A stretch of 23,521 nt of DNA from a virus (IMGVR_UViG_2529293249_000013:1-23521), one strand, 5' to 3'. Counted from the stretch's first letter, positions 2,034 through 7,502 are shown. A program made the numbers and translations. Notes: generated from the sequence alone by a model not told the origin.

Positions 2034-2046
2034 GTCCGCCTGTTCA
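2021..2046. terminator. Bidirectional hairpin terminator between convergent acetyltransferase and tailspike genes
   Basis: Perfect inverted repeat GGCGGAC-TAA-GTCCGCC (2024-2040) with the acetyltransferase stop codon in the loop. On the minus strand the hairpin is followed by CATTTTTAT. Confidence 0.5.
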
Positions 2047-4470
2047 TGATTGATAAACACCACTATTTACATAGTTAGCCTGAATTCGTGTACGGAATGT
2101 TGAATCAGCAATCTGATATGAATTTAACTGAACAGGAATAGCGCATCCGGAATATTTACCAGTAGCACTATTACCAGACTCATACTCACCAAATAGCAGT
2201 CCTATGGTTGTAATAGATGTCTCCGCAACTCCTGTGATTGTAGACAACCATCCAAATACACAACTTGTAAAATCAAATATACCTGTTCGTTTTCCACCAC
2301 TACTGTTCCAACCCAATCCATAGATTCGACAGTTGTTAAAGTAAATTCTGTTGTATGAACCGGAGGTGCGGGGAAGCGCTCCATCAATATATCCCATCGC
2401 CATATCTTGATTTGAAACACGCACCGTCATGTTACCCCATGCATTGATATAAGGAACGCAGTTGTAACTGTTATCAATAGTCACATCCTGTGGAACATCA
2501 TAGGAAGTAAACATGAATGTTTGTACGTTATAGCGAGGGTTGGATGGCGAAGTGGTTTTCCCAAGACGAGCAAGGTCTACATCCTTCACTGTGAGCTTAT
2601 ATTTTTCTCTGCCTACGATAGTTGAAAGCTGAGCATCTGTTAGGCTTGAGTAGTTCCTTTGGTTGTAGACAACGCTGACGGATAAAGTGGAATCATAAGA
2701 ACGTGTCCCTACAACCTTTACATTTTCAATGTAATGGCTGTTTGGCAGAATCATATATTGCTCATAATTATTTTTGCTTGACACGCCGAGATCCAATATT
2801 CTAAGTTCCAGAAGTCCAGAGGCATTAGTCAGATCAAGAGACACGTCCTTTATCACTACATCCGGGCTTGTGGCGATATAATTACCATTATATTTTGGTT
2901 CAAGACTGCTTACCAAGAAATAACCTTCACACGTAGACGGTAACGTGACTCGTAAACCTTCAACTCGAATCTCGCCATCCCATGATGACATGTAATCTCG
3001 CTTCACAGAGAAAAATTCAAGAGTTTTTTTCCCGTACATGCCGAGGTGCTTGCATTTAGTGGCCACCCATTCTCCCCAACCTTGCGCCGCACAATGATAA
3101 CGAACTGTCGATTCATTGAGATAAATGTCAGACATACTGAAGTGACCGCCAACGCCAGGTAAGTCGCATCGATTAATATGTATATTTCGTGATTTATTAC
3201 CATCAAAGCCGCTCCACCCATTGATGCAGCAGCAATTATCCATTGTTACATCAGAACATTTTTCAGTGAGGATAAAATAGGCTGCCTCATTTCTTCCCGC
3301 GGGGATGGAAGGTGCAGTACCATCAAGATATCCAACAGGACTCATGTATAGGTTATTAACATAAACTCTTGAGCATCGTTGGAAGTTTACTACCTGCCTT
3401 GTGCAACCATTATTTATTACCTCAACTGTATTTCCATGTATTATAGTATTATTCCTTGAGCAAAGAACAACATTATTGATTCTTGCCCCATCCAAAACAA
3501 CCTTTGGCATTTTAAAATACAGGTTATTTGTAAAAGGTTTATATTTTATAACAGGTCGATCTTTATAGGTATAATAGTTCCGATAACGCAAGTTACCGTC
3601 AGCGTCAATCTCGTGAACTTCTGTTTTTAGCTGGTCTGATAAAGTACCACCATTATTTCTCACCATCACAACATCTTTAGAATCAAGAATAATAGTTCCC
3701 TGTAATCCATTAACAGGGAAGCTCACCTGCCCTTTCATGTAGCTTACTGCGGAAAACATTTCAGTGACATCATTTTCATCCTGAGAGATTTCAAATAGTG
3801 TCTTGTCCAAAGACCAGACATCTCCACCCTGATATGTAGAGCATGTCACTGTTGCATCACTCATATCTGAGCTAACTGTTATTTCAATAGGGTCTGTGGA
3901 ACTTGCCGTGAGAACATAATTCCCTGTAGCAACAACCGATTTTTTCAATATCTTTGCGTCTGCATACATTTTTTTAAACGCTAATGTATGATCCACCTCA
4001 TTCCCATCAAAATAGAGCTCTGGATACAGAAAAGGAAGACTCTTTAACTTATTTAACTCTTCCTGAACAGTAGTGCCAGTTGCCGTCCCTATTATTGATG
4101 CGCCCCCATTACTTTCAATTTGCTGACGCAATTGGTCGGGGTCATACTTCAGCACATTCGGAAAATAGAACTGCTGCGCACCATACGCATCATAAACAGC
4201 CATAGAATGGCCTTGCACAGTTACGAACTTGGCAATCTGTCCGTTATATACCGGATATCCAGCAGCGTTAATGATGATTGGTTGCGAAACAGGAACGTGA
4301 GAACCGTCTTCGTTCTCCACATAAACCTGAATCTGGTTTTCAGGATTTACCGGGTCCGTGTCAATTTTACCGATATAGATTTTGCCATTGGCTACGGCTT
4401 TAAAAGAACGAGCCATAGTGAAGAGTTGCGAAGGCATGCTCACTACAACATTGGCTGTAATGTCTGTCAT
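2044..4470 (-). CDS. Tailspike protein: P22 gp9-type head-binding N-terminal domain fused to a divergent receptor-binding/depolymerase body
   Basis: 808-aa ORF. First ~115 aa ([11 protein letters not shown]...[21 protein letters not shown]...[13 protein letters not shown]...VLKYDPDQ) closely match the P22 tailspike head-binding domain as recalled; the rest is unrelated to P22 gp9 and AT-rich (~30-40 percent GC). RBS GGAG 9 nt upstream of ATG at 4470. Confidence 0.9.
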
Positions 4471-4602
4471 TTAATTTGCTCCAGATACAATGAATCGCCG
4501 CAGCATGGCTACGGTTGATGTTTGTTGCATACCGAAATGGTACGATTGTTGATTTGTACAGTAGGTTTTACGATGCCATTCCACCCATTTGGTGAGGCAT
4601 TG

Positions 4603-4860
4603 ATGATGTACAGCAAATACGATGAGGCGCAGTTCCACTTGAGGCTTACGCACGAGTTGCACGCTAAGATTAAGCAGCGTGCAAAAATGAATAACAGGTC
4701 TATCAATTCCGAAATTGTGGCTACGATGGAAGAATCACTCTCCAAACCATCACCTGTAAGCGGGTATCGTGATGAAGAAGAGAGGTTGGCCTCATTAATC
4801 TCGGAGCGAGTAAAAGAAGTTGCGGCTGATATCCTTAGAAAAGAAAAAACCCGCGATTAA
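4603..4860 (+). CDS. mnt: Mnt-like ribbon-helix-helix repressor (immI region)
   Basis: Six-frame ORF 4522-4860 trimmed to ATG at 4603, which has RBS GGTGAGG upstream. The 85-aa product has RHH motif NNRSINSEIVATMEESL and a C-terminal SKPSPVSGYRDEEERLA close to P22 Mnt (SKPSPVTGYRNDAERLA, from memory). Confidence 0.8.
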   Translation: MMYSKYDEAQFHLRLTHELHAKIKQRAKMNNRSINSEIVATMEESLSKPSPVSGYRDEEERLASLISERVKEVAADILRKEKTRD

Positions 4861-4869
4861 GCGGGTTTA
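4843..4869. terminator. Bidirectional rho-independent terminator between convergent mnt and the 73-aa ORF
   Basis: AAAAAA-CCCGC-gattaa-GCGGG-TTT: 5-bp GC stem flanked by an A-run and a T-run; the mnt stop codon lies in the loop. Confidence 0.6.
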
Positions 4870-4874
4870 GTTGG

Positions 4875-5096
4875 TTAGTTATCAAAAAGTCCGTACGTTT
4901 CTTCTTCTTCAGGTGTAAGGGGAAGAATCTCTACTCTATCTATAGATATCTTTTCAATGTACCCATGAGGTCTACTTAAAATTAAAGCTCTCTCATGCCA
5001 CAGAACTCCAAGAATGTGATACCTTCCAGCATCGCCTTTTACCCTGGCTCTTCCTTTGATTCTTGGCGGCATAATGCCATATTTTTTCTTTGCCAT
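4875..5096 (-). CDS. Hypothetical 73-aa protein, translationally coupled to the upstream KilAC-domain gene
   Basis: Its ATG overlaps the stop of the upstream gene (TAATG). Basic N-terminus MAKKKYGIMPPRIKGRARVKG. No family recognised. Confidence 0.45.
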   Translation of the reverse strand: MAKKKYGIMPPRIKGRARVKGDAGRYHILGVLWHERALILSRPHGYIEKISIDRVEILPLTPEEEETYGLFDN

Positions 5097-5824
5097 TATG
5101 CAACATTACTCCCATGAATCAGGTGTTGTAGTGCTTTAACACCTTCCTCATTGTAGCGGAATGCTTCCACCTGTTTGCTGGAATGCGCAGATTTATCCAG
5201 GAAGAACTTCCCGTACTGCTCAGTTTTGAGGTTGTTTGCGTTAGCAATGCGACCAATCTTGTTGGCCGTTACCCCAAGCTGCTCTGCAACCTCCCCTGCT
5301 GAGTAGTAATGCTCTTCTATTGCTGGAAGAGGTATTGCATTAAAACCAACGATCGGGTTGATTATGCTTGCTGCCGCAGTCTGCTTTGCTTCCGGCGCAA
5401 GATTTGGCATCAAATCGAACAGATTGGTAACAGCTTCAACCGTCATTTTCAATGTTCGCGCCTGGCGATACTCAACAAGTCCACTAGACGATTTACCGCT
5501 TTTAATGTGCGCTTCTTGCATACTTTCAAGTTGGTCTACAAGTGAGCGGCGAACAGCTTTAGATTCACGAGCAGCCACTCGAAGGGCTTGCTTAATTGAC
5601 ATAACAACTTTTTCAGAAGTTGTCTTGTTTGATTTTTGAACTACGAAAATTTCGTAGTGCTCACCTTCAAGTTCATCCTTAATGCGTGCAATAAAGTCGT
5701 TATTGCGGACTTCTTTTTCCCCGCACTGTCTACGAGCATGATTGACCATCTCTAACAGGTACTGGCTATCAATGGTTTTATCCGTGACAACGGATCCGAT
5801 GTTTGCTACATTCTTAAAAGTCAT
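5096..5824 (-). CDS. Phage antirepressor/regulatory protein with KilAC-like C-terminal domain
   Basis: Six-frame ORF 5096-5875 trimmed to ATG at 5824 (MTFKNVANIG...) with RBS AAGGAA 8 nt upstream. N-terminus TIDSQYLLEMVNHARRQCGEKEVRNNDFIARIKDEL resembles phage antirepressor N-domains; C-terminus (YSAGEVAEQLGVTANKIGRIANANNL...) looks like a KilAC domain. Assignment from memory, moderate. Confidence 0.6.
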   Translation of the reverse strand: MTFKNVANIGSVVTDKTIDSQYLLEMVNHARRQCGEKEVRNNDFIARIKDELEGEHYEIFVVQKSNKTTSEKVVMSIKQALRVAARESKAVRRSLVDQLESMQEAHIKSGKSSSGLVEYRQARTLKMTVEAVTNLFDLMPNLAPEAKQTAAASIINPIVGFNAIPLPAIEEHYYSAGEVAEQLGVTANKIGRIANANNLKTEQYGKFFLDKSAHSSKQVEAFRYNEEGVKALQHLIHGSNVA

Positions 5825-5912
5825 TAGGCATTCCTTATGTGGTAGTAAGGGTGTGACATAGGCCGCCAGCAGCACACTGGCGGTTTTCTTTTTGCGCCGT
5901 CCGGCGCACCAA

Positions 5913-6539
5913 TCAATGAATCCATTCCTCGCCGCGCAGTTTTGCCAGCATTGGCTGAGCGTTCTTTACGACAAAATTGTTGGTATCAAGATTCTTCATT
6001 TCACGAAGAAGTGATTTCTTGGTTTCTTCTGACATGTAGCGAGTCTCATATGCAATATCGTAAATCCTTCCTGAAAGCTCAGAACCAATTTGCTTCATTC
6101 CTGGGTAGATGTGTTTGCACATTTGTTGACTCTTCTCCATCCACAATTGTAAGTAGCAGAGATTAACCAGTTCTTCGTCAGTAAACTGTTTTGCAATCGG
6201 TGAGCATTCTGCCTGCCGATCCAAAATATCCAGCACCCAGCGGCGGAACTCTTTGGCTACCTGAGTGCGAGCAAACATCGCGATTAGGTGGGCACCGCGT
6301 AGTGAGAAAACACGCACTTTTTTGCGATAATTTCCTGAGGTACTCACTTCGAGTACCTGAGTCATTCCGGCGCTAAACTCATCGCTATACTTGTTATAAA
6401 TCATTGTTACTGCACGACTATTTGCGTATTTAAGTGCAGATGCAATATTAGATGATGTAAACCAAACACCATGCATATCACGGGTGGGCACCAATTCAAC
6501 TCCGTGGAAGTTATAATCTGATTTTGCTACAATATTCAT
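5913..6539 (-). CDS. Bro-N-type antirepressor-like protein (ant analogue downstream of arc)
   Basis: Bro-N-like motif YNFHGVELVPTRDMHGVWFTSSNIASALKYANSRAV...RVFSLRGAHLIAMFARTQVAKEFRRWVLDIL. Start set at ATG 6539 (MNIVAK..., RBS AAGGAAA). An upstream in-frame ATG at 6623 also has a plausible RBS and would overlap the arc stop. Confidence 0.7.
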   Translation of the reverse strand: MNIVAKSDYNFHGVELVPTRDMHGVWFTSSNIASALKYANSRAVTMIYNKYSDEFSAGMTQVLEVSTSGNYRKKVRVFSLRGAHLIAMFARTQVAKEFRRWVLDILDRQAECSPIAKQFTDEELVNLCYLQLWMEKSQQMCKHIYPGMKQIGSELSGRIYDIAYETRYMSEETKKSLLREMKNLDTNNFVVKNAQPMLAKLRGEEWIH

Positions 6540-6608
6540 GTTAGTTTCCTTGCATACGGTTACTGACATAGAGGCCCGGTTTGTGTTCACGCACTGCCGG
6601 GCTTCACT
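6525..6608 (+). ncRNA. Possible sar-like small antisense RNA, complementary to the ant-analogue RBS and start codon
   Basis: Plus-strand consensus -10 TATAAT at 6512-6517 (weak -35). Downstream, a hairpin GAGGCCCGG-17 nt loop-CCGGGCTTC (6571-6605) is followed by ACTATTTTTACT. The predicted ~80-nt transcript would be antisense to the RBS/ATG at 6539-6552. P22 has a sar RNA in the equivalent arc-ant interval. Confidence 0.25.
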
Positions 6609-6612
6609 ATTT

Positions 6613-6786
6613 TTACTGGGCATTAGCTCTTTCCTCTCTCAGGCTTTTAGCCAGTCGCTGCACAATCGCAGAGTTGATAGAAATTCCATCCATTTCAGCA
6701 ACACGTCTAATCTCCTCCTTCATTCGCGCTGGCAAACGAAGCTGGAAACTTTGACTTTTACGACCTGTGTAAAGCACATCTTTCAT
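6613..6786 (-). CDS. arc: Arc-like ribbon-helix-helix repressor
   Basis: Six-frame ORF 6613-6801 trimmed to ATG at 6786 with RBS GGGAGGA. The 57-aa product has RHH motif SFQLRLPARMKEEIRRVAEMDGISINSAIVQRL, resembling P22 Arc (QFNLRWPREVLDLVRKVAEENGRSVNSEIYQRV, from memory). First gene of an arc-ant-like operon. Confidence 0.75.
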   Translation of the reverse strand: MKDVLYTGRKSQSFQLRLPARMKEEIRRVAEMDGISINSAIVQRLAKSLREERANAQ

Positions 6787-6897
6787 AAGTAATCCTCCCA
6801 CAATGATACCAACTTGGTTCTAGAACCAATTTAACACCATTTATTTTGATGTCAAGTTGGTGCTATTGTTTAGCGAACATCTTTACGTTGAGGTCAT
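6787..6897. promoter_or_regulatory. Divergent promoter/operator region between arc-like (minus) and second mnt-like (plus) genes
   Basis: Perfect 16-bp palindrome TTGGTTCTAGAACCAA (6814-6829), flanked by 9-bp inverted repeats ACCAACTTG (6808-6816) and CAAGTTGGT (6853-6861). Minus-strand promoter: -35 TTGACA (6850-6855), 16-nt spacer, -10 TAAATT (6828-6833); the palindrome covers the -10 and predicted start site. Confidence 0.6.
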
Positions 6898-7218
6898 ATG
6901 AGCAAGTTCCCTAGTCATGAAATGGATAGGTTCAATATCAGGCTTCCTGCAGGAATGCGGGATGCTATAGCTGAACGAGCCAAACGTAACGGCAGATCAA
7001 TGAACTCAGAGATTGTTCAGATACTGGAAGATGCCTTGAATGCAGAAAATACACTCGGGGAAATAGCAGATAAAATCAACAGCGTCTCGGTTCCGCTAAA
7101 TGTTGATGCGCTAGTTCAACTTCAAGCCCAGGTTATCGCCATGCAAAAAGAAATACAGGAAAAGTTCAGAGAGCAGAACGAAAAGTTGAGAGAACTGCTA
7201 AACAAAAAAACCACCTGA
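6898..7218 (+). CDS. Second Mnt-like RHH repressor (N-terminal RHH plus C-terminal coiled coil)
   Basis: 106-aa ORF. RHH motif FNIRLPAGMRDAIAERAKRNGRSMNSEIVQILEDAL, then a heptad-rich C-terminus (LVQLQAQVIAMQKEIQEKFREQNEKLRELL). Divergent from the arc-like gene, in the position P22 mnt occupies. Confidence 0.7.
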   Translation: MSKFPSHEMDRFNIRLPAGMRDAIAERAKRNGRSMNSEIVQILEDALNAENTLGEIADKINSVSVPLNVDALVQLQAQVIAMQKEIQEKFREQNEKLRELLNKKTT

Positions 7219-7240
7219 CGGTGGGTTAATTTTTGCCTTT
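7204..7240. terminator. Putative terminator after the second mnt-like gene
   Basis: AAAAAAA-CCACC-tgac-GGTGG followed by GTTAATTTTTGCCTTTTTT. Short stem. Confidence 0.4.
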
Positions 7241-7316
7241 TTTGGACCATATTGACTACTCATAAAATGAGATCAATATTTAATCGCCCAATAACGGGTG
7301 CATGTTGAGGTATATC

Positions 7317-7496
7317 ATGGCGAAAAAACCAGGTGAAAACACAGGAAAAAACGGCGGAATATACCAAGAAGTTGGCCCGCGCGGAGGTAAGAAAGACAAT
7401 TTTGCCACCGTCAAGGACAACGAAAGGCTTCCGCCAACAACAAAGCCAGGTCATGGCTGGGTATTAGATAAGCGAACTCCAGACAGCAAAAAGTAA
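7317..7496 (+). CDS. Small conserved hypothetical protein, YjzC-like (59 aa)
   Basis: Six-frame ORF 7302-7496 trimmed to ATG 7317 (RBS GAGG about 8 nt upstream). KPGENTGKNGGIYQEVGPRGG...RLPPTTKPGHGW resembles the YjzC-like small protein family as recalled. Upstream TTGACT at 7252-7257 and an inverted repeat CTCAT-AAA-ATGAG could be a promoter/operator. Confidence 0.5.
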   Translation: MAKKPGENTGKNGGIYQEVGPRGGKKDNFATVKDNERLPPTTKPGHGWVLDKRTPDSKK

Positions 7497-7502
7497 TAAT
7501 CA

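Follow-up and report, generated by a model that had tools for sequence, protein, structure and literature searches.

The region between positions 4471 and 7240 of the viral DNA IMGVR_UViG_2529293249_000013:1-23521 (23,521 nucleotides (nt); this whole stretch is called the window below) is the 'ant moron' or immI (secondary immunity) slot of a P22-like E. coli prophage, and represents a variant of a well-studied system. We favour the explanation that this slot holds a complete immI-type operon (unit 1, 4875-7218) together with an orphan Mnt unit (unit 2, 4529-4860), and put the probability of this reading as a whole at about 70%. It is built on the genes and domains present, on synteny, on RNA folds and how far they are conserved, on purifying selection, and on the co-variation of operators with the DNA-binding strands of the repressors. 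The new points are a second predicted antisense cassette (sar2), the conserved partnership of Ant with Orf242, and selection on orphan mnt genes and their operators. No point of the locus overturns current understanding.

The secondary-immunity slot of P22-like phages has been named the 'ant moron' and is hypervariable, with ten types among sixteen genomes, some of which have an mnt gene only (Villafane et al. 2008, PMC2629481). In the window, homologues of gene 16 (ejection protein) and gene 9 (tailspike) flank the region in a P22-like late operon. A divergent ribbon-helix-helix (RHH) maintenance repressor gene and an Arc-type RHH gene placed first in the ant operon are both present, with Arc and Mnt matches in the PDB. 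The open reading frames (ORFs) at 4603-4860, 5096-5824, 5913-6539, 6613-6786 and 6898-7218 and the small orf73 are all present and match RefSeq gene calls in the corresponding prophage of E. coli 55989. This confirmed the gene content given by an earlier, sequence-only reading of the window, which had also proposed an immI-equivalent slot with an Arc-like first gene, as the flanking genes and the Pfam Arc match of that gene bear out. Unit 1 and its control region consist of the following features.

4847-4868, minus strand: terminator hairpin and T-run ending the ant operon, overlapping the mnt2 3' end (terminator scan)
4875-5096, minus strand: orf73, a coupled small ORF overlapping the orf242 stop codon (TAATG); phrog_4977, 1e-53
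5096-5824, minus strand: orf242 (242 amino acids (aa)), second antirepressor-like gene; phrog_1726 'anti-repressor', 9e-101, residues 1-242 of a 264-position profile
5804-5895, plus strand: sar2, predicted cassette antisense to the orf242 start region; extended -10 TGCTACATT (5804-5812, inside the first orf242 codons), predicted start near 5819
5833-5850 and 5861-5893, plus strand: sar2 hairpins, namely a 5' hairpin with anti-Shine-Dalgarno (anti-SD) UCCUUAU and a GC-rich terminator hairpin with a T-run on the antisense strand only (terminator and promoter scans)
5913-6539, minus strand: ant208, complete Ant-type antirepressor; Pfam Bro-N 9.5e-10 and P22_AR_C 2.7e-14, phrog_245 'anti-repressor Ant' 7e-53
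6525-6612, plus strand: sar1, predicted antisense element; extended -10 TGCTACAAT (6525-6533), predicted RNA start 6540 beside the ant208 ATG, 5' hairpin 6540-6567, terminator hairpin 6571-6605
6613-6786, minus strand: arc57, Arc-like RHH gene, first in the operon; Pfam Arc 1.1e-11, Arc chains in the PDB, 18/43 residues identical to P22 Arc
6808-6862, no strand assigned: control region, a Pant-like promoter with candidate operators S1-S3 (promoter scan and palindromes)
6855-6828, minus strand: Pant-like promoter toward arc57, TTGACA (6855-6850), 16 nt containing TGn, TAAATT (6833-6828); promoter scan, 10/12 match plus TG
6808-6818, no strand assigned: candidate operator S1, ACCAACTTGGT
6814-6829, no strand assigned: candidate operator S2, TTGGTTCTAGAACCAA, a perfect 16-bp palindrome
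6852-6862, no strand assigned: candidate operator S3, TCAAGTTGGTG
6861-6869, plus strand: extended -10-like element TGCTATTGT, read from the sequence, candidate rhh106 promoter (Pmnt analogue)
6898-7218, plus strand: rhh106, Mnt-analogue repressor (106 aa) with an RHH domain and a long C-terminal helix; Pfam Arc 1.6e-20, phrog_1287 3e-47

From this arrangement we infer binding events, promoter activity, transcripts and the activities of Ant208 and Orf242 as follows. Unit 1 would be a complete immI-type switch of a sequence type other than that of P22. In the lysogen, the divergent rhh106 product would take the Mnt role and keep the strong Pant-like promoter off by way of TTGG-type sites, with S1 and S2 at -10/+1 and S3 at -35. 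Infection or derepression would then release a burst of arc57-ant208-orf242-orf73 mRNA from Pant, after which Arc57 would close the promoter, and the sar1 and sar2 cis-antisense RNAs would hold down translation of ant208 and orf242 by pairing with their ribosome-binding regions. Ant208 would bind and inactivate primary repressors of the C2/LexA family. Orf242 would act as a co-regulated second effector, belonging to an antirepressor-like two-domain class (KilA-N-like plus winged helix-turn-helix (HTH)) that travels with many Ant types. Unit 2 would be an orphan Mnt orthologue with its own Pmnt and Omnt, left from a P22-type immI after loss of arc-ant and maintained under selection; in the simplest case it would be a repressor that regulates itself and has its target outside the unit 1 operon. 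Antirepressor modules decide the timing of the prophage lytic switch and permit cross-talk between co-resident prophages. The locus shows the P22 immI design of two RHH repressors and an antisense RNA to be a portable cassette found in many sequence types.

The two antirepressor-type genes of unit 1 are each complete, and they form a conserved pair. Ant208 scored above the Pfam cut-offs for both P22_AR_C (53.4 bits, cut-off 22.4) and Bro-N (39.4 bits, cut-off 25.6), which makes it a complete Ant-type protein, and it is 76% identical to the Ant of phage SPN3UB. The sequence-only reading was therefore right to see Bro-N at 5913-6539, but the gene is not of Bro-N type alone, as P22_AR_C is present too. 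Orf242 belongs to a family with 2099 homologues of 241-248 aa across Enterobacterales. To survey its surroundings we used 80 IMG/VR loci encoding orf242 relatives with 68-100% identity, 78 of which had enough upstream DNA (comparison loci are given L numbers below). Directly upstream of orf242, on the same strand, lay an Ant208- or P22-Ant-related gene in 71 of the 78 and a different Bro-N protein gene in 3 more (74/78). Genes like arc57 and a divergent rhh106 usually precede this ant-orf242 pair, whether or not the contig has a P22-type tailspike gene. As orf242 follows an Ant-type gene in 74 of 78 loci, in P22-like and in other phages, the two genes belong to one conserved operon. A family of about 242 aa with more than 2000 members and without a Pfam match is thus a regular partner of Ant genes, apparently with a sar-like antisense brake of its own.

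This bears on an interpretation in which modules of different specificity, each with an antirepressor, had been merged by recombination. That the region is a composite of two units was upheld, but the antirepressors do not derive from two modules, and the second module gives only the orphan mnt. The earlier interpretation is in this way supported for the composite region, and not for two antirepressor modules or for the 'KilAC type' label it had placed on 5096-5824. Orf242 had no Pfam match at E<=10, KilAC/ANT (PF03374) included. An hhalign comparison of the orf242 family with the KilAC protein encoded in the nin region of the 55989 prophage gave a probability of 0.2%, leaving a resemblance at the level of the fold only. 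Likewise, hhalign found no similarity between the orf242 family and the ORF6N protein gp22 of SPN3UB, a PDB sequence search with Orf242 returned matches at chance level only, and scans of orf242 and orf73 against NCBIfam, PADLOC and Pfam gave nothing useful. In a structural model, Orf242 starts with a putative KilA-N/APSES-like domain, which a helical linker joins to a C-terminal winged-HTH domain of MerR/Par/Xis-like type. The fold neighbours carry antirepressor annotations, names that themselves come from annotation only.

The nin-region protein of 55989 (L213 38196-38918) is a genuine KilAC-domain, Roi-like 'antirepressor' in the same prophage type, which accordingly encodes at least three antirepressor-annotated proteins. 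The small orf73 had been described as a coupled 73-aa ORF, and its TAATG overlap with the orf242 stop agrees with this. It has only 8 close homologues among 5.8 billion proteins, a number too small to predict its structure usefully, and is missing from many otherwise identical loci.

Both ant208 and orf242 are faced by a predicted antisense element at their start codons. The 73-nt sar1 RNA starting at 6540 folds into two hairpins with a dot-bracket shape identical to that of P22 sar (-33.3 kcal/mol, z -5.9, none of 200 shuffled sequences as stable). Both hairpins are kept in 11 distinct arc-ant gaps, P22 included, through compensatory changes such as GGCCCGG/CCGGGC to GGCCCAG/CTGGGC. In P22, used as a control, the Rfam sar model scored 97.8 bits and exactly fills the arc-ant gap, with its start adjoining the ant ATG. 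The P22 sar promoter TGCTATACT lies within the first ant codons, and the window element TGCTACAAT is equally distant from its ATG. As judged by predicted fold and position only, sar1 has the features of the sar functional and structural class, namely a length of about 70 nt, a start beside the ant ATG, an anti-SD 5' hairpin and a 3' terminator hairpin. Alignment of the sar families with MAFFT and RNAalifold recovered the terminator stem only, as the 5' hairpins were misaligned, and folding of each sequence separately was more informative.

The spacer between ant208 and orf242 is 88 bp long and contains a conserved terminator, Shine-Dalgarno (SD) sequence and start codon. It is here that sar2 is predicted to form a second cassette of sar-like design, with weaker statistics than sar1. 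Across 37 distinct sequences, whichever ant gene lies upstream, its extended -10 (TGCTAnAnT), the CAT and the terminator on the antisense strand either do not vary or change in a compensated way, and conservation ends exactly where the differing ant genes begin. The two-hairpin fold was kept in 9 divergent versions, and the Psar2 box repeats the Psar1 box in direct orientation.

The control region offers a candidate link between rhh106 and the TTGG-type sites. Identity to P22 (97%) resumes at window position 7202, in the final mnt codons ('KKTT' and the stop), and continues into orf59a. This restart at the last codons of rhh106 places the gene exactly in the mnt slot, and so upholds the RHH repressor that had been proposed for this position. 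Only the RHH part of rhh106 resembles Mnt, Arc and AmrZ. The PDB match to Mnt is limited to residues 10-51, which makes rhh106 an analogue of Mnt rather than a member of its family. A single-sequence AlphaFold2 model gives the tail, earlier described as a coiled coil, as a single long helix from residue 69 to 105, and the pattern of this helix is heptad-like. With chain G of PDB entry 9pio, an 'Arc family DNA-binding protein' of 79 aa from a recent structure, rhh106 and arc57 gave matches of 4e-5 to 7e-5.

The palindromes S1, S2 and S3 overlap the 10/12 match to a Pant-like promoter, and S1 and S3, 44 bp apart, form the two arms of a larger inverted repeat. Across loci, TTGG-type sites track the DNA-contact strand 'RFN[IV]RLP' of the Mnt analogue, even where its C-terminal half has been exchanged, and do not track Arc. 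In locus L017 the TTGG-type sites are gone and the promoter region is wholly different; there the DNA-binding strand of Arc is identical (arc 96% overall) and the strand of the Mnt analogue reads 'RFTVRMP'. This co-variation with the rhh strand, L017 included, favours rhh106 as the putative ligand of the TTGG-type sites.

Unit 2 lies between the tailspike leader and the end of the ant operon, convergent with unit 1.

4529-4543, no strand assigned: candidate Mnt2 operator, ATACCGAAATGGTAC, in the P22 Omnt position just upstream of the Pmnt -35 hexamer
4546-4574, plus strand: Pmnt2-like promoter, predicted by positional alignment with P22 Pmnt; TTGTTG (4546-4551), 17-nt spacer, TACGAT (4569-4574)
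4579-4552, minus strand: decayed former Pant hexamers, ATGGCA (4574-4579) and ACAAAT (4552-4557), 16 nt between them (alignment with P22 Pant)
4603-4860, plus strand: mnt2, orphan true Mnt orthologue (85 aa; RefSeq start 4606); Pfam Arc 4e-15, PDB 1mnt 3e-16 over residues 7-79, phrog_795 6.5e-33

Mnt2 is identical to P22 Mnt at 34 of 73 residues. Its sequence has both the RHH domain and the homologous C-terminal tetramerisation segment, including 'SKPSPVxGYR..ERLA'. The suggestion that a second Mnt homologue with an Mnt-like C-terminus lay beside the tailspike gene was thus substantiated by the 1mnt match. Orphan mnt genes are known in P22-like phages (PMC2629481; bioRxiv 10.1101/2020.10.05.325894), and the layout of tailspike, Omnt2 and mnt also occurs in Sf101, IME10, VSe13 and vB_EcoP-720R6, where it equals the P22 layout minus arc-ant. 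When aligned with P22, the candidate operator of the window, ATACCGAAATGGTAC, occupies the place of AGGTCCACCGTGGACCT in P22 and AGACCACTGTGGTCT in 720R6, each of which precedes a Pmnt-like promoter. The operator type follows the N-terminal strand of Mnt: Sf101 and IME10 share the strand and the operator of the window, and their C-terminal halves differ.

A scan of IMG/VR for the exact 15-mer of Omnt2 gave 80 loci, 45 of them related to the region. In 43 of these 45 the 15-mer lies between tailspike and mnt, and the remaining two are cut off. None of the 45 has an Omnt2-type operator beside arc-ant. A search of the whole Sf101 and JEP4 genomes for further Omnt2-type sites, using the 10 outer positions, yielded none that was plausible, with one unrelated one-mismatch match in JEP4 and none in Sf101. 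Between the window and VSe13, mnt2 shows 29 synonymous and 5 non-synonymous differences (protein 96% identical), and the ratio of non-synonymous to synonymous substitution rates (dN/dS) of 0.026 indicates that the gene is maintained by selection.

In two comparison loci, L013 and L014, a full mnt-arc-ant set of P22 type stands between the ant208-orf242-orf73 block and the tailspike gene, giving two immI regions in tandem (~5540-7300). Against P22, the figures for this second immI are 79/60% for Mnt, 86/76% for arc and 55/42% for ant. The tandem is the intermediate that would be expected, and unit 2 looks like such a second immI after the loss of arc-ant.

Two promoter candidates near unit 2 were rejected. 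A leftward promoter from the mnt2 region toward the tailspike gene was set aside because the aligned Pant hexamers are decayed and Sf101 shows a 2-bp difference in the spacer, and a plus-strand promoter match at 4464-4491 because it is not conserved in P22 or JEP4. The Klebsiella phage phiKp_30 (L006 3956-4953) encodes a protein 99% identical to Orf242, adjoining an N-terminally truncated mnt2 that is without the DNA-binding strand. At the DNA level this Klebsiella Lederbergvirus is 97.7% identical, which suggests a recent transfer between genera.

Other accounts of mnt2 were weighed against its role as a selected, autoregulated repressor. It could be a functionless remnant of a degraded immI, as the missing arc-ant, the decayed Pant hexamers and the truncated phiKp_30 copy might indicate, and for the mnt-like gene of phage L such a status has been left open (10.1101/2020.10.05.325894). 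However, the 29 synonymous against 5 non-synonymous differences (dN/dS 0.026) largely refute this account, the mnt2 ORF is intact with its operator and promoter in 43 of the 45 related loci, and the DNA-binding strand and the operator are conserved jointly even where the C-terminal half has been exchanged (Sf101 and IME10). We regard a remnant as very improbable. Orphan mnt genes, hitherto open as possible remnants, are thus under strong purifying selection along with a matching operator.

Mnt2 might instead provide a second lock on ant208 and orf242 by binding 6806-6820 (ATACCAACTTGGTTC) at the Pant transcription start, a form of the layered control of one antirepressor that had been proposed earlier. 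This site fits the Mnt2 operator pattern ATACC-N5-GGTAC with one mismatch and lies at +1 of Pant, the position of Omnt in P22; in the 55989 region such matches number about 5 for 98 kb of strand, so a match within the promoter core by pure chance is unlikely. However, the promoter region is identical in loci without mnt2 (L021, L040, L061, L062, L079), mnt2 is also found with quite different promoters and regulators (JEP4 type), and in L080, L081 and L085 the 'ATACC' half is replaced and the remainder of the site kept. The DNA-contact strands differ as well, QFHLRL in Mnt2 and RFNIRL in rhh106, and common descent of Mnt-family operators can account for the resemblance. Layered control retains one weak lead, the one-mismatch site, and appears to us decidedly unlikely. 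A little less unlikely, and still poorly favoured, is that the orphan Mnt serves as a trans-acting 'anti-antirepressor' immunity factor, silencing the Pant of incoming or co-resident phages with matching operators and maybe also the resident Pant through the 6806-6820 near-match. If true, the lysogen would be shielded from induction by a foreign antirepressor, and mnt2 would be kept for this beside the tailspike gene in many E. coli and Shigella P22-like prophages.

Several results weigh against our account of unit 1. The Rfam sar covariance model (RF00262) had no match at E<=10 in window positions 4300-7700, the Rfam scan giving a weak symR-like match only, which pointed to the hairpins. By the Rfam criterion sar1 is therefore a structural homologue of sar and not a member of the family. 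The sar2 fold is only modestly above shuffled sequence (z -1.84), and covariation in its terminator is slight, at 1 of 10 pairs. Both modelled domains of Orf242 have folds of DNA-binding type, so the label 'antirepressor' may be wrong for this protein. Orf242 could then be a DNA-binding transcription factor or a Roi/Rha-like regulator of host takeover, whose place in the ant operon is incidental. However, P22 Ant and other proven antirepressors carry domains of the same class, the tight synteny with ant and a sar-like brake of its own suggest a product as dangerous to lysogeny as Ant, and its fold neighbours are annotated as antirepressors, though by name only. We consider the regulator a serious alternative, if a somewhat doubtful one, and prefer the second effector. 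The notion that a frameshift broke a single antirepressor gene into the Bro-N and 'KilAC' ORFs, raised earlier in the term 'split', has only same-strand adjacency in its favour. It is already refuted, and we give it practically no credence: ant208 has both the N- and C-terminal Ant domains, orf242 spans its family profile end to end, the 88-bp spacer with its conserved regulatory elements separates them, and the two-gene arrangement recurs in more than 70 loci. All the RHH ORFs match RHH profiles and the antirepressor-type ORFs are not fragments of one gene, so that, at the level of sequence profiles, the checks named beforehand as potentially fatal to the sequence-only reading do not refute it.

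Like P22 immI, the region lies between genes 16 and 9 and has a divergent RHH repressor, an Arc-type RHH gene first in the operon, an Ant with P22_AR_C, and orf59a and hkcC as neighbours. For the arc-ant gap, a cis-antisense RNA is predicted whose two-hairpin shape and promoter position match those of P22. In contrast to P22, the repressor in the Mnt position has an unrelated C-terminal helix and different operators, and Ant carries a Bro-N rather than a P22_AR_N N-terminus. The window also has the additional orf242, orf73 and second antisense cassette, and its operon ends at a terminator facing the orphan mnt, whereas that of P22 runs straight into gene 9.

The Salmonella siphovirus SPN3UB is similar at gp19-gp22 in having a divergent RHH gene, arc and ant (identities 78% for the RHH domain, 58% and 76%, respectively). 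Its promoter geometry is also alike, with TGTCAAGTTGG at -35 and inverted outer sites, and a second gene of the Bro/KilA/ORF6N class follows ant. However, this gene (L007 2184-2972) encodes an ORF6N protein (6.9e-19) unrelated in sequence to orf242, and SPN3UB is not P22-like and is without an orphan mnt. It seems that ant is repeatedly followed by a second gene of the Bro/KilA/ORF6N class.

The orphan mnt genes of L/ST64T/ST104, Sf101, IME10, VSe13 and vB_EcoP-720R6 resemble unit 2 in being a lone mnt divergent from the tailspike gene, with a palindrome in the Omnt position and a Pmnt-like promoter. They differ in being the sole immI remnant, whereas the orphan of the window adjoins a complete immI of another type. 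JEP4 shares the mnt2-orf73-orf242-ant block (93% at the nucleotide level), and L013 and L014 share the ant208-orf242-orf73 block. In JEP4 (L001 5164-6078) and L014 (2298-3212), however, a repressor with HTH and S24 peptidase domains (LexA/C2-like) and a ParD-like RHH protein replace rhh106 and arc57, and L013 and L014 differ further in retaining the full P22-type mnt-arc-ant beside the tailspike gene. The HTH and S24 repressor upstream of ant208-orf242 in the JEP4 type suggests a lock on the antirepressor operon that the SOS response could cleave.

In its wider distribution, the region 4300-7600 shows 100% identity to E. coli DETEC-E601 and 99.5% to E. coli 55989. In the latter strain the counterpart lies within a complete P22-like prophage, located at a tRNA-Arg gene, whose primary repressor is the LexA-family protein WP_000856967.1. 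At least 80% of the region was present in only 12 of 5426 complete E. coli genomes, and parts of it in 1513. Among phage records, JEP4 matched 4458-6619, Klebsiella phage phiKp_30 4663-5934, SPN3UB-type phages 5862-6541, and P22 and its relatives 7202-7600. These matches of different pieces to different phages identify the region as a mosaic in the 'ant moron' slot. The window as a whole runs from a prophage integrase gene (1-1158) and a hexapeptide acyltransferase gene (1446-2033) into leftward tailspike, ejection, head, portal and terminase genes to Rz. The borders of the slot and the remainder of the moron (7317-7875) are as follows.

2044-4470, minus strand: gene 9 homologue (tailspike), bounding the ant moron on the left; Pfam Head_binding 2e-67 over residues 1-113, RefSeq tailspike/head-binding
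4471-4528, minus strand: tailspike leader, aligned with the P22 ant-9 gap; homology to the P22 gene 9 leader stops at the junction motif GGCTACGGT (4507-4515)
7317-7496, plus strand: P22 orf59a homologue, 58/59 residues identical to P22 orf59, part of the ant moron
7502-7521, both strands: bidirectional terminator between the orf59a and hkcC homologues (terminator scan)
7510-7875, minus strand: hkcC homologue (HK620 annotation); phrog_1365, without a Pfam match
8130-10253, minus strand: gene 16 homologue, right-hand limit of the ant moron

The motif GGCTACGGTGA (4507-4515), at which similarity to the P22 gene 9 leader breaks off in the window, is a possible recombination joint; the P22 ant-9 gap contains it twice, directly repeated. 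RefSeq also calls an ORF of 75 aa (7906-8133), located past the immI part and before gene 16. Where the window has its hexapeptide-repeat acyltransferase (1446-2033), 55989 has a different, larger acyltransferase, and the tailspikes of 808 aa in the window and 659 aa in 55989 have only the head-binding domain in common. These differences beside mnt2 look like the swap of a serotype-conversion/receptor module.

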